DNA of 64,000 nt. Origin: Escherichia phage Es2. A program made the position numbers and the translations under genes. Below the pieces are notes generated by a model. That model was given only the letters and a program-made list of their open reading frames with translations. It did no database searches and was not told where the DNA came from. Positions within the stretch are counted from its first letter, which is position 1; each line of letters begins with the position of its first letter. Positions 1,481-62,030 of the stretch are shown here, piece after piece. The stretch lies in the sequence record OR515477.1. One strand, written 5' to 3'.

Positions 1481-1872
1481 AAGAATTTCAGTGCAGAACA
1501 CGGAGCTAGCAATTCGGAAGTGCTGACTCATGATAAGCTGCCTATGTACTTGCTAAGCGGTCGTGTCCAAGACTCGGACTCTTGCACTGAAAACAATCAA
1601 ACATTCTAGCGTGGTTGATGGGGAAACCAGCTTGGCTAGGGCAGAAGCTCGTTCGATTCGAGTGAAAGAATGGTTCTCGTAAGTCCGCACAAGTGATAGC
1701 AGGTTCGAGTCCTGTCTAGAATGACACTATAAAGTTTACTTATTATGTAGGTTCCGATAGATCGGCGGGTCTATTCTGGCATTTAAGAGAAGTCTCGCAA
1801 ACTTCTTTGTCAGCCGTGGGGTTGGTAGCCTCCAGGTGGCCTACACAATAAGTAAATTTATTAAAAATTCAT

Positions 1873-3004: not shown

Positions 3005-3242
3005 ATTTATATAAATTGATGAGGAGAAATCCTCATCATAGTTCACTAAGGTATTAGCTCGACCTAGGACTGGCTGCCAAAAAGCACGATCCCTACGATT
3101 CGGGAAAAGTTCTAGATTGGTCCACTAGATTCAGCGGCAACTGAATAGTGTATTGGGTTTGCGAGATGACGTAGTTCCTTCCGCTCTAAGCGAAGGTGCT
3201 GTAGTTACGCCGAGCTAATAGCCTTAGTAAACTAAAGAATTT

Positions 3243-3326: not shown

Positions 3327-3403
3327 GCGTGATTGATGGAATGGGCATACATACCGTCCTTAGAAGTCGGGTTTTGAGGGTTCGAATCCCTTGTCACGCA
3401 CCA
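3327..3403 (+). tRNA. tRNA, anticodon TAG (Leu-decoding) with short variable loop
   Basis: Acceptor GCGTGAT/GTCACGC, anticodon loop CTTAGAA with one stem mismatch, T-arm GAGGG-TTCGAAT-CCCTT, CCA; isotype uncertain. Confidence 0.5.
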
Positions 3404-3515
3404 AATTTGATGGTCAGAGTAAATTAAACCTACTATCTCGGTTGAGCTGTTTTAATGGGTTCGAATCCCAGCGGGGCGTAACTGCCTGGTGTGATAGAGG
3501 CATCATCTTATTATT

Positions 3516-3606
3516 GGAAGAGCAAATCGAATTGGCGACGAAAACCGCTTGGAAAGTGGCTGACTGGTAAAACGGCTTGAGAGTTCAAATCTCTCCTCTT
3601 CCGCCA
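3516..3606 (+). tRNA. tRNA-Ser (anticodon GGA), type II
   Basis: Perfect acceptor GGAAGAG/CTCTTCC, anticodon loop TTGGAAA, long variable arm, T-arm GAGAG-TTCAAAT-CTCTC, CCA. Confidence 0.7.
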
Positions 3607-3618
3607 AACAATTTATAT

Positions 3619-3713
3619 GGTAGGTCAATCCAATGGCTGGCGCTGGACTCCGACTTGAAATCGGTTGATCGTAGTGATACGGTGTAAGGGTTCGATCCCC
3701 TTACCTACCTCCA
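3619..3713 (+). tRNA. tRNA-Ser (anticodon TGA), type II
   Basis: Perfect acceptor GGTAGGT/ACCTACC, anticodon loop CTTGAAA, long variable arm, T-arm AAGGG-TTCGATC-CCCTT, CCA. Confidence 0.7.
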
Positions 3714-4079
3714 AATCTTGAAGTATGCCGGAATCGGTAGACGGGGCTGCCTAAAAGGTTTATAGGGAACATCCACTCCCTGCAACATACCTCATAAAGC
3801 GGCTGAGATAAATGGTCTATCTCGTGAAGGTTCAAGTCCTTCTGCTTCTTGATACATCTATGGCTCAAAGTGTAACGGTGCTATTTGATGCTCTTGGTAA
3901 GACTTCCCCGACATGCGTTCGGGAGTAAGCTGCTAAGACTAGAGTAGAAGAGTTTCTGAGAGCCGCCACAATTGAAAATTCGTACTCGTCTTGAGCTGCG
4001 CGCAATAGGAGATAACTTGATTAGTATTCTAGAACATGCTAATTGAGGAAGGTTTCGCTAACCCTGCGAGTTTTCAATT

Positions 4080-4156
4080 GTGGCTATATCATAATTGGTT
4101 AATGATCCTGATTGTGAATCAGGCCTATGTGGATTCGAATTCCACTAGCCACCCCA
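4080..4156 (+). tRNA. tRNA-His (anticodon GTG)
   Basis: Perfect acceptor GTGGCTA/TAGCCAC, anticodon stem CCTGA/TCAGG with loop TTGTGAA, T-arm GTGGA-TTCGAAT-TCCAC, CCA. Confidence 0.8.
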
Positions 4157-4180
4157 AATTAACTTAAATAGGAAATAAAT

Positions 4181-4387
4181 ATGGCTGATTTCTGCAAACA
4201 ATGCTCCATTGATATGTGGGGTAAAGATACTGGTGATCTTTCTGGTTTGATTACAGAAGCTGAAGTTAAAGAAGGCTACGGTGCTGCTGTGATCTGCGAA
4301 GGATGCGGAGTTATTCGAGTAGATCATGAAGGCAAACGTTTAGAAGATCCAAAAAGTATTAAGAAGAAGGTTAGCCAAGTAGGTTAA
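4181..4387 (+). CDS. hypothetical CxxC-CxxC small protein
   Basis: Track ORF 68 aa, AGGAAA RBS; 3' end overlaps next tRNA by about 23 nt. Confidence 0.5.
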   Translation: MADFCKQCSIDMWGKDTGDLSGLITEAEVKEGYGAAVICEGCGVIRVDHEGKRLEDPKSIKKKVSQVG

Positions 4388-4440
4388 GGCTGGGGTCTCT
4401 GAAATCCTGATCAGTGGTTCGAATCCACTACCTTCTGCCA
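4365..4440 (+). tRNA. tRNA-Gln (anticodon CTG)
   Basis: Perfect acceptor AGAAGGT/ACCTTCT, anticodon loop CTCTGAA, T-arm AGTGG-TTCGAAT-CCACT, CCA. Confidence 0.65.
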
Positions 4441-22579: not shown

Positions 22580-22918
22580 AATCTCATAGATTAACAACTA
22601 CTCTAGTTGATTAACTCTAGGGGCGATGATTATTACACGAATGTCTCGTATAGCTTGCGGCCTAGCAACAGCGGTATGACGGCATGAGTACTCACGTAAT
22701 TAATCACGCGCCCACAGGAGAGACTCTCATGAAATTGGGGGTCTCTTTTTCTTTATATTATTTAAATATTTTTAATGGCAATATCTGTGTTCAAGATGAT
22801 ACACCTGTTGCCGCTCATCTGCTAGGATGGCACAACACTTTCTTCTAGACTCCTAAGTTTCTAGGAATAGTTGAGCACTAACTCTAGAGTTTACATTAAA
22901 CTTTAAATCTGTTTCTCT

Positions 22919-23075
22919 AGTCAACTCAGGCGGTTTTCATATTCCTAGAAACTCTAGCAATAGGCGGTTAATACAGGGCGGTTTTAGGGAGGGCGGTTAT
23001 TTCTAGAAGACATTTTTTGAAAACACATTTCTAGAAATTACTGTCGTATTTGCACACTGCATTTCTAGAAATTTA
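22919..23075. repeat. GGCGGTT direct repeats and ATTTCTAGAAAT palindromic 12-mers
   Basis: Four GGCGGTT(T/A) copies between 22919 and 23000; TTTCTAGAA(A/G) palindromes at about 23010, 23030 and 23062. Confidence 0.7.
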
Positions 23076-23643
23076 TGGTCGGATTTGCACAAACGCCTAA
23101 GTTTTTAGGAACATATAATCTCTTGAAAATGGCAGCATTATTTCGGGCCGAAGGCCCGTGATTGCCTGAGTTTTTAGAGCCACAAGAATTTTCACTTGTC
23201 AAGCTATTTTGCCCCATTTAGCAAATAAAATTTTACTTTATCTCCTCTAATCTCAAATTAACCCAAATCTTCTCAACTCTTCCCCAAAATACCCGCAAAT
23301 CAGGTGCTCCGCACCAAACATGCGCCTCTCCCACAGTTCCCCCAAAATTTCTCTCGCTCTCTCAACTTCTCCCCAAACATACACAATCACACACCCTCCA
23401 ATCGAAGCCACAAAAATCTTGTCGGATTCGCACATCTTAATCCTAGAAAAACCGTGTCGGATTTGCACATACCCCACAGGATTCGAACGCAGTTCGAGAT
23501 TGCTGGAGTTTTTAGGAAAATTCATTGTCGGATTCGCACACTATAAAAATTTTTCGGGTCGGATTTGCACACTACCAAAAATTGTCGGATTCGCACATAC
23601 ACGCCCGCACGTAACACCCGTGGAGCAATGTCGGATTTGCACA
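23042..23643 (+). repeat. eight direct copies of 15-bp motif (T/G)GTCGGATT(T/C)GCACA
   Basis: Copies at 23042, 23077, 23420, 23455, 23525, 23556, 23582 and 23629, all in the same orientation. Confidence 0.85.
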
Positions 23644-23667
23644 AAAGCGCAGGGCAATTGCCCTGCG
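23644..23667. repeat. perfect 24-bp palindrome AGCGCAGGGCAATTGCCCTGCGCT
   Basis: Read directly; centred on CAATTG, immediately after the last 15-bp repeat. Confidence 0.85.
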
Positions 23668-23880
23668 CTAAATGAGAATAAAAATAAGAATCATTCTCAT
23701 TTAGAAAGCGGAATGAGAATGATAATAATTCGCATTTAGAAAGCGAAATGAGAATCAATCTCATTTAAGAACGGAAACGAAAATTATTCAGGAAGTGAAA
23801 CGATTCTCATTTAGAAAGTGGAATGATTCTCATTTAGAAAGTGGAATGCAAATGATAATGATTCGCATTTAAGAATGGAA
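23668..23880. repeat. degenerate repeat family TCATTTAGAAAG(C/T)GGAATGA(T/G)
   Basis: At least six related copies with internal dyads (GAATGATTCTCATTC-like); a further copy at 24207-24232. Confidence 0.7.
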
Positions 23881-61995: not shown

Positions 61996-62030
61996 GAAAA
62001 CCCCAGTGGACAAAATCCACTGGGGTTTTA
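61996..62030. terminator. bidirectional intrinsic terminator between convergent genes
   Basis: Hairpin CCCCAGTGGA...TCCACTGGGG flanked by an A-run upstream and T-run downstream. Confidence 0.8.

Follow-up and report, generated by a model that had tools for sequence, protein, structure and literature searches.

The long-range inverted repeat at positions 3965-4084 of the DNA stretch from Escherichia phage Es2 analysed here (64,000 nucleotides, referred to as the window) is almost certainly a selected RNA helix, which closes the RNAIII module known from phage T5. Judged by its sequence, the element that the arms close is T5 RNAIII, an RNA that was already known. The helix extends 8 bp past the annotated mature ends of RNAIII, and we see an even chance that it acts as a constitutive processing stem of this RNA, a proposal that we take as a whole, RNase III-type cleavage included.

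The window covers the tRNA region of a T5-like phage (Demerecviridae, Markadamsvirinae). Positions 3400-4400 are matched by 464 phage records, most of them at more than 90% identity, and the homologous interval of T5 is 95.8% identical over 311 nt. The curated T5 records (NC_005859 and AY692264) give the order RNA1, RNAI, RNAIII and tRNA-His, with annotated sizes of 107 nt for RNAI, 106 nt for RNAIII after a 4-nt gap, and 78 nt for tRNA-His. They label RNAIII (rnaIII, locus T5s01, misc_RNA) as a "stable RNA with unknown functions", and make no mention of an extended helix, of an overlap with tRNA-His or of alternative cassettes. The first and last 12 nt of T5 RNAIII match the window exactly at 3973 and 4078, homology to T5 rnaIII runs along its full length, and the synteny is the same, with the gene on the same strand between rnaI and tRNA-His(GUG) in the tRNA cluster. 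The T5 and window sequences differ by two substitutions, both located in the internal hairpins, and represent the same gene. The roughly 120-nt structured leader RNA suspected in the initial annotation was therefore essentially right, since it corresponds to the RNAIII annotated in T5. A search of Rfam 15 at E ≤ 1 gave no match within 3965-4079, and the region returns tRNAs only.

The features of the locus are collected in Table 1. RNAI has a tRNA-like terminal stem (GGCTC/GAGCC), a discriminator G and an encoded CCA; this stem directly abuts the closing helix, and the last four bases of RNAI form the outermost helix pairs. ARAGORN places the tRNA-His at 4080-4156, and the Rfam tRNA model puts it at 4080-4153; its C73 and CCA are encoded, and a G at position -1 is not. 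The loop motif of RNAIII hairpin 3, TTCGCTA, is T-loop-like and, by a by-eye sequence comparison, is also present in one of the alternative cassettes described below (type D). In many related genomes the genes for tRNA-Ser, RNA1 and RNAI are either unannotated or overlaid by small 'hypothetical protein' ORFs.

Table 1. Features at and next to the RNAIII locus (positions in the window)
Feature	Position	Strand	Basis and remarks
tRNA-Ser with long arm	3619-3709	+	missed by ARAGORN; seen by Rfam as tRNA-Sec-like at 37.6 bits; annotated as tRNA-Ser in relatives
RNA1, "tRNA-like stable RNA" of T5, 144 nt in T5	about 3718-3861	+	coordinate offset (window = locus + 2649), termini without exact match; missed by ARAGORN
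RNAI, 107-nt stable RNA of T5	3862-3968	+	T5 mapping by exact termini; missed by ARAGORN
5' arm of closing helix	3965-3984	+	fold, T5 annotation mapping, covariation; 3965-3968 G-CCA end of RNAI, 3969-3972 CAAT spacer, 3973-3984 first 12 nt of RNAIII
CAAT spacer between RNAI and RNAIII	3969-3972	+	pairs with 4077-4080; the same in every relative compared
RNAIII, 106-nt stable RNA, orthologue of T5 rnaIII/T5s01	3973-4078	+	coordinates transferred from T5 GenBank annotation
RNAIII internal hairpin 1, irregular	3985-4011	+	T5 and window predictions differ
RNAIII internal hairpin 2, 12-bp stem, 8-nt loop	4016-4047	+	
RNAIII internal hairpin 3 (GGTT-TCGCT-AACC)	4051-4063	+	
3' arm of closing helix	4065-4084	+	tRNA call, fold, T5 mapping, covariation; 4065-4078 RNAIII 3' end, 4079 base -1 (T), 4080-4084 tRNA-His +1 to +5 (GTGGC)
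tRNA-His (GUG)	4079-4156	+	78 nt in T5 annotation, counted from U-1

The segments GCCACAATTGAAAA (3965-3978) and TTTTCAATTGTGGC (4071-4084) are exact reverse complements, so the perfect 14-bp inverted repeat reported in the initial annotation stands at its coordinates, as does the overlap of its 3' arm with the first bases of tRNA-His, which amounts to +1 to +5 in both the ARAGORN and the Rfam calls, plus the -1 base at 4079. In the repeat search the arms reach 18 nt at 94% complementarity, and RNAfold predicts a helix of 20 bp (3965-3984 with 4065-4084), two G·U pairs included. A CAATTG palindrome is found in both arms. The ends transferred from the T5 annotation, where U3973 pairs with A4076 and the 3' end at U4078 forms a 2-nt 3' overhang, split this helix into a 12-bp stem on RNAIII and a 6-bp outer stub with a 2-nt overhang of its own. 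The 14-mer by itself is only mildly unusual and is weak evidence; the window holds three perfect 14-mer inverted repeats within 200 nt, and 14 of 200 first-order Markov simulations of a 64-kb window contained a perfect one at less than 200 nt (mean 0.105 per window). The complete 120-nt element folds at -47.4 kcal/mol (z = -6.7), and none of 200 shuffled sequences was as stable. It is this fold z-score, together with the covariation of the helix in relatives, that sets the inverted repeat apart from chance.

About 50 loci were gathered from the phage collection, IMG/VR and metagenomes, and between the conserved ...GAGAGCC(G/A)CCA and GTGGCTATATCA... they carry five kinds of insert. Type A, which is RNAIII, occurs in the window, in T5 and in most Tequintavirus (120 nt, arms included in this and the following lengths), type B in falkor and saus176N (135 nt), type C in STG2 and vaffelhjerte (77 nt), type D in bastian and L020 (147 nt), and type E in the locus L043 (42 nt). 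Among the phage collection records, type A is found in roughly 350, B in 55, C in 65 and D in 15, always once per genome and at the RNAI/tRNA-His site; no further copy of any cassette was found elsewhere in the window or in the other loci. The interiors show no detectable similarity to one another in local alignments against shuffled sequences (z ≤ 1.2), with the exception of a weak score between type D and RNAI (z = 3.1), and a common origin of the cassettes was rejected on these values. Types B-D gave no family match in Rfam at E ≤ 1. The closing helix, on the other hand, occupies 19-21 positions in all five types, and type E consists of the helix alone, in which one mismatch separates 14 bp from 4 bp and the loop is GCAA (z = -7.9). 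This minimal form, a hairpin of 19 positions, shows that it is the helix itself that relatives keep.

Outside this group, in Novosibvirus Stubb, the Vequintavirinae and Suspvirus, hairpins or tRNAs lie upstream of tRNA-His, and none of them pairs with the tRNA. In Escherichia phage TrudiRoth (L011, positions 601-722), RNAI breaks off about 12 nt short of its 3' end, where it meets sequence that lies upstream of a tRNA-Thr, with RNAIII and tRNA-His absent at that position, which indicates that the RNAI-RNAIII-tRNA-His unit can be lost.

When the arms of the collected loci, which comprise 10 distinct arm sequences, were aligned in register, 96.5% of the cells formed standard pairs, versus 31-45% when the partner was slid by 1-3 columns. 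Nine of the 20 pairs are changed on both sides, and none of 500 shuffles reached the observed values; pair 10, for example, goes from G-C to A-U in type E. In about 16 cells the pair is G·U, in place of which the opposite strand would have A·C. So many strand-specific G·U pairs indicate that the helix acts in RNA of the + strand, the sense of the tRNA, and not in DNA. The initial annotation would have counted loss of the arm from relatives against its reading; the arms are kept in relatives, and they covary.

The covariation has limits along the helix. Pairs 2-8 are invariant in the aligned arms, and covariation therefore says nothing about the stretch shared with tRNA-His; three relatives lack pair 1, and one lacks pair 9. 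Four of the outer pairs (CCA-C with G-UGG) follow largely from the constraints on the ends of RNAI and tRNA-His, because U2-G3-G4, present in any E. coli-type tRNA-His, can pair with an upstream RNA that ends in CCA; the initial annotation overlooked this constraint, as it did the identity with a known gene. Against pure coincidence stand the CAAT spacer and AATT leader, which are under no such constraint and yet do not vary among about 45 loci with five unrelated cassettes, whereas the adjoining RNAI sequence upstream diverges. The feature that stays constant across the types is the total length of the helix.

The initial annotation had also suspected a competition between the upstream arm and the acceptor stem of tRNA-His. 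For a precursor running from RNAI through RNAIII to tRNA-His, the minimum-energy fold keeps the extended helix complete and leaves the tRNA misfolded (-101.2 kcal/mol), whereas the same precursor with the acceptor stem enforced reaches -91.7 kcal/mol, a cost of 9.5 kcal/mol in a nearest-neighbour model that leaves out tRNA tertiary structure. The extended helix is predicted to take up five of the seven acceptor-stem nucleotides of tRNA-His. Because of these energies, and because the helix is transcribed before the tRNA, the competition is borne out in silico, in favour of the extended helix.

In our processing-stem proposal, the cleavage, the enzyme and the order of events, as we infer them, would be as follows. 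RNAIII sits between RNAI and tRNA-His in a polycistronic transcript. Before processing the helix measures about 20 bp, and its outer pairs join the G-CCA at the end of RNAI and the CAAU that follows to the AAU tail, to base -1 and to G1-C5 of tRNA-His. Both strands would be cut inside the helix, after 3972 and after 4078 with a 2-nt stagger, by an endonuclease specific for double strands, for which the host RNase III is the most likely candidate. RNAIII would thereby be freed, its terminal stem 12 bp long and its 3' overhang 2 nt, and RNAI would be left with a 4-nt CAAU trailer, which exonucleases would trim to CCA. With the outer duplex cut to 6 bp, the 5' strand of tRNA-His could refold into the acceptor stem. 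The interior of the module would be exchangeable cargo.

The geometry of the helix is consistent with such a substrate. A double cut by RNase III typically leaves a 2-nt 3' overhang (PMC6212723, PMC3867540), and the enzyme acts on a continuous helix of about two turns, or about 20-22 bp (PMC3867540); the closing helix measures 20 bp in the window and 19-21 bp in the five types. The distance from the proposed cut to the inner helix junction is 11-13 positions in every type, at or above the minimum of roughly 11 bp from the cut (PMC1540722). At the level of sequence, the rules for RNase III appear to fit the annotated register only partly. A G-C pair at position 2 of the proximal box is inhibitory, and G-C or C-G is likewise disfavoured next to the scissile bond (PMC1540722); neither place has such a pair, since position 2 is A3975-U4074 and position 4 is U3973-A4076, and the pairs adjoining the annotated cut are A-U/U-A. 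The canonical distal box is UA/UG (PMC1540722), but the distal box here, about 9-10 bp from the cut, reads C-G/G-C, and position 1 of the proximal box is A-U in place of the canonical G-C. Likewise, the two pairs between the cuts usually include a G-C at in vivo sites (PMC6212723), but here they are A3971-U4078 and U3972-A4077, paired and lacking G-C. The canonical proximal and distal box pattern is present 2 bp further out, at pairs 7-10 and 15-16, and a cut in this outer register would take off G+1 of tRNA-His. The layout of the boxes assumed here follows in part the R1.1 product sequence.

A literature search that stopped short of the original T5 RNAI/RNAIII papers returned no end mapping of T5 RNAIII and no rnc-dependence. 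RNase III has been reported to take part in the maturation of the T4 tRNA cluster (McClain 1979; Gurevitz & Apirion 1983, as cited in PMC4810235), and in B. subtilis the scRNA is excised from a stem by RNase III (PMC1935012).

The main rival to an RNase III-type processing stem is a stem that serves stability only, in which the 12-bp terminal stem would shield RNAIII from exonucleases and the 8-bp outward extension would be incidental. RNase P, acting at the 5' terminus of tRNA-His, would then make the 3' end of RNAIII, 3' exonucleases would trim, and RNase E or another single-strand endonuclease would cut the AU-rich CAAU/UGAAAAUU; products similar to those of RNase III could come from RNase P and RNase E together. 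Sites of RNase P usually have a T at -1, and tRNA-His is preceded by such a T. The invariance of the outer pairs, which leaves selection for pairing unproven in that part, would fit as well, as would the match of CCA to U2-G3-G4 of any E. coli-type tRNA-His and the CAATTG palindrome in both arms. In the Vequintavirinae and Novosibvirus the hairpins upstream of tRNA-His do not overlap the tRNA, and the RNase III sequence rules are only partly followed in the annotated register (PMC1540722, PMC6212723). An incidental extension would not, however, be expected to keep CAAT and AATT invariant in about 45 loci and five cassettes while RNAI diverges, nor to hold the helix at a constant 19-21 bp rather than 12, the minimal type E included. 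Moreover, the predicted sequestration of the acceptor strand (about 9.5 kcal/mol) would hinder RNase P, and RNase E requires single-stranded RNA, whereas the proposed site lies within the helix. In our view a stem of this kind is the less likely reading.

The regulatory switch proposed in the initial annotation, a mobile element acting at the level of DNA, and chance are all unlikely. For the switch, the upstream arm would compete with the 3' acceptor strand of the tRNA for GUGGC, and this competition would be modulated to set tRNA-His maturation. The two conformers are indeed mutually exclusive, with the extended helix as the predicted winner, but we found neither a terminator nor a riboswitch match in Rfam, nor a ligand-binding fold or an alternative pairing that is conserved, and the same helix encloses five unrelated interiors, even a bare tetraloop hairpin, which argues against a sensing domain. 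We consider a switch quite improbable, and a constitutive processing or scaffold helix fits better with the equal helix length around five unrelated inserts. An intrinsic terminator was rejected as well, since what comes after the helix, UAUAUCAUAA, is the body of the tRNA and not a U-run; the terminator scan gave a single match, at 4054-4070, where a stem of 5 bp lies within the 3' arm, and the total for the region is at the level of shuffled sequences. The swapping of cassettes would be explained if the arms served as terminal inverted repeats or recombination sites of a small mobile cassette, or as the target of a homing endonuclease or a cruciform target. Such an element could account for the exchange of unrelated interiors between identical flanks and for CAATTG at both borders as a direct and inverted repeat, and HNH homing endonuclease genes do occur in the same tRNA cluster of relatives. 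Yet the many G·U pairs would not match in DNA and would read A·C on the other strand, the inner arms vary from type to type and stay complementary, as in RNA-type covariation, and each cassette is present once per genome, always at the same site and nowhere else in the window. The dispersed copies and target-site duplications of a MITE-like or TIR-bounded element contrast with this one copy per genome, and a DNA-level role thus seems very improbable to us. As for chance complementarity devoid of function, a perfect 14-mer repeat within 200 nt does arise in about 7% of simulated 64-kb windows, but the fold z-score, the nine covarying pairs across five cassette types and the minimal type E refute it, and its probability is practically negligible.

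The processing stem has several counterparts among known systems. The RNase III-excised intervening sequences of Salmonella 23S rRNA have a conserved stem and a variable interior that is sporadically replaced, and the RNAIII site resembles them in combining a conserved stem with a changeable interior. In the stems processed by RNase III at the flanks of 16S and 23S rRNA, in T7 R1.1-type sites and in the B. subtilis scRNA, a helix of roughly 20 bp is likewise formed by the sequences at the flanks of a stable RNA, and the ends are staggered by a 3' overhang of 2 nt, with 11 bp or more on the product side, as the T5 annotation would have it for RNAIII (PMC3867540, PMC1540722, PMC6212723, PMC1935012). 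The RNAIII helix differs from them in the distal-box and central-pair preferences, from which its annotated register departs, and in that its outer strand belongs to two other RNAs, the CCA end of RNAI and the 5' terminus of tRNA-His; cleavage is here a proposal. The small stable RNAs of T4 are, like RNAIII, co-transcribed with phage tRNAs (PMC2330249), a likeness that does not come from sequence comparison, but unlike RNAIII they are not known to pair with the acceptor strand of a neighbouring tRNA. Ordinary bacterial pre-tRNA 5' leaders share with RNAIII the position directly 5' of a tRNA and the U at -1, whereas here the leader is a 106-nt stable RNA predicted to sequester five of the seven acceptor-stem nucleotides.

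The base at -1 is of interest in its own right. At 4079 the tRNA-His gene has a T instead of the usual encoded G, while C73 and CCA are kept, and a comparison of this position across L038, L040, L041, L044 and L059 showed a T also in Novosibvirus Stubb, the Vequintavirinae and Suspvirus EcSzw_1, and an encoded G-1 in Erwinia phage phiEa104 and in an Eneladusvirus, the latter with A73. Given the role of G-1 in histidine identity (PMC9976931), the T is odd, and it is not linked to the helix. We had considered that an RNase III cut might supply U-1 in place of G-1, and downgraded this idea because phages without the helix have a T at -1 as well.

Other inverted repeats of the window were noted alongside. 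The interval 1732-1859 (+) is a second RNAIII-like module, in which a helix of about 21 bp closes three hairpins in a four-way junction (arms 1732-1751 and 1840-1859, 20 nt, 90% complementary; -49 kcal/mol, z = -6.2). It is kept in about 400 T5-like phage records, with no RNA annotation among the records listed, and many of the alignments begin exactly at its 5' arm; six divergent sequences contain 9 compensatory pairs. The module, which lies directly upstream of a promoter-like TTGCTA-17-TATAAT (1873-1901), is probably an undescribed structured RNA or processing element. A weaker inverted repeat at 3052-3066 and 3206-3220 (+; 15 nt, 87% complementary, 139 nt apart, fold z = -2.6) ends about 20 nt upstream of tRNA-Ala. 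A perfect 14-bp long-range repeat, AAGTTTCTAGGAAT... / ...ATTCCTAGAAACTT, at 22856-22953 (+; fold z = -2.9) is intergenic, between a + ORF ending at 22848 and a - ORF at 23065-23217, and several other 12-mer inverted repeats are grouped at 23027-23826. The perfect 14-bp hairpin AAAACCCCAGTGGA / TCCACTGGGGTTTT at 61997-62029 (z = -7.9), with A- and T-runs alongside, is an ordinary bidirectional intrinsic terminator.

As far as we have checked, three points go beyond the T5 annotation and the literature within reach, namely the extension of the helix into RNAI and tRNA-His, its use as a constant-length frame for unrelated inserts, and the predicted sequestration of the acceptor strand. These additions are incremental and modest, and no new kind of system is involved. 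More speculatively, and on balance unlikely, the RNAI/tRNA-His junction could be a 'cassette holder', where a frame of double-stranded RNA, unchanging and about 20 bp long, would let phage lineages swap unrelated small RNAs that the host RNase III releases. The site would then be a hotspot for accessory non-coding RNAs (anti-defence decoys, for example), the same cut would control the release of a tRNA-His lacking G-1, and the module at 1732-1859 would belong to the same class.

What the locus does show is that relatives replace the RNAIII sequence by unrelated inserts or nearly delete it. In about 500 T5-like genomes these RNAs are unannotated or overlaid by spurious 'hypothetical protein' ORFs. 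Should RNase III indeed cut the helix, this would provide a concrete maturation pathway for a phage tRNA cluster, and would account for the release of a tRNA that has its acceptor strand tied up in the precursor.
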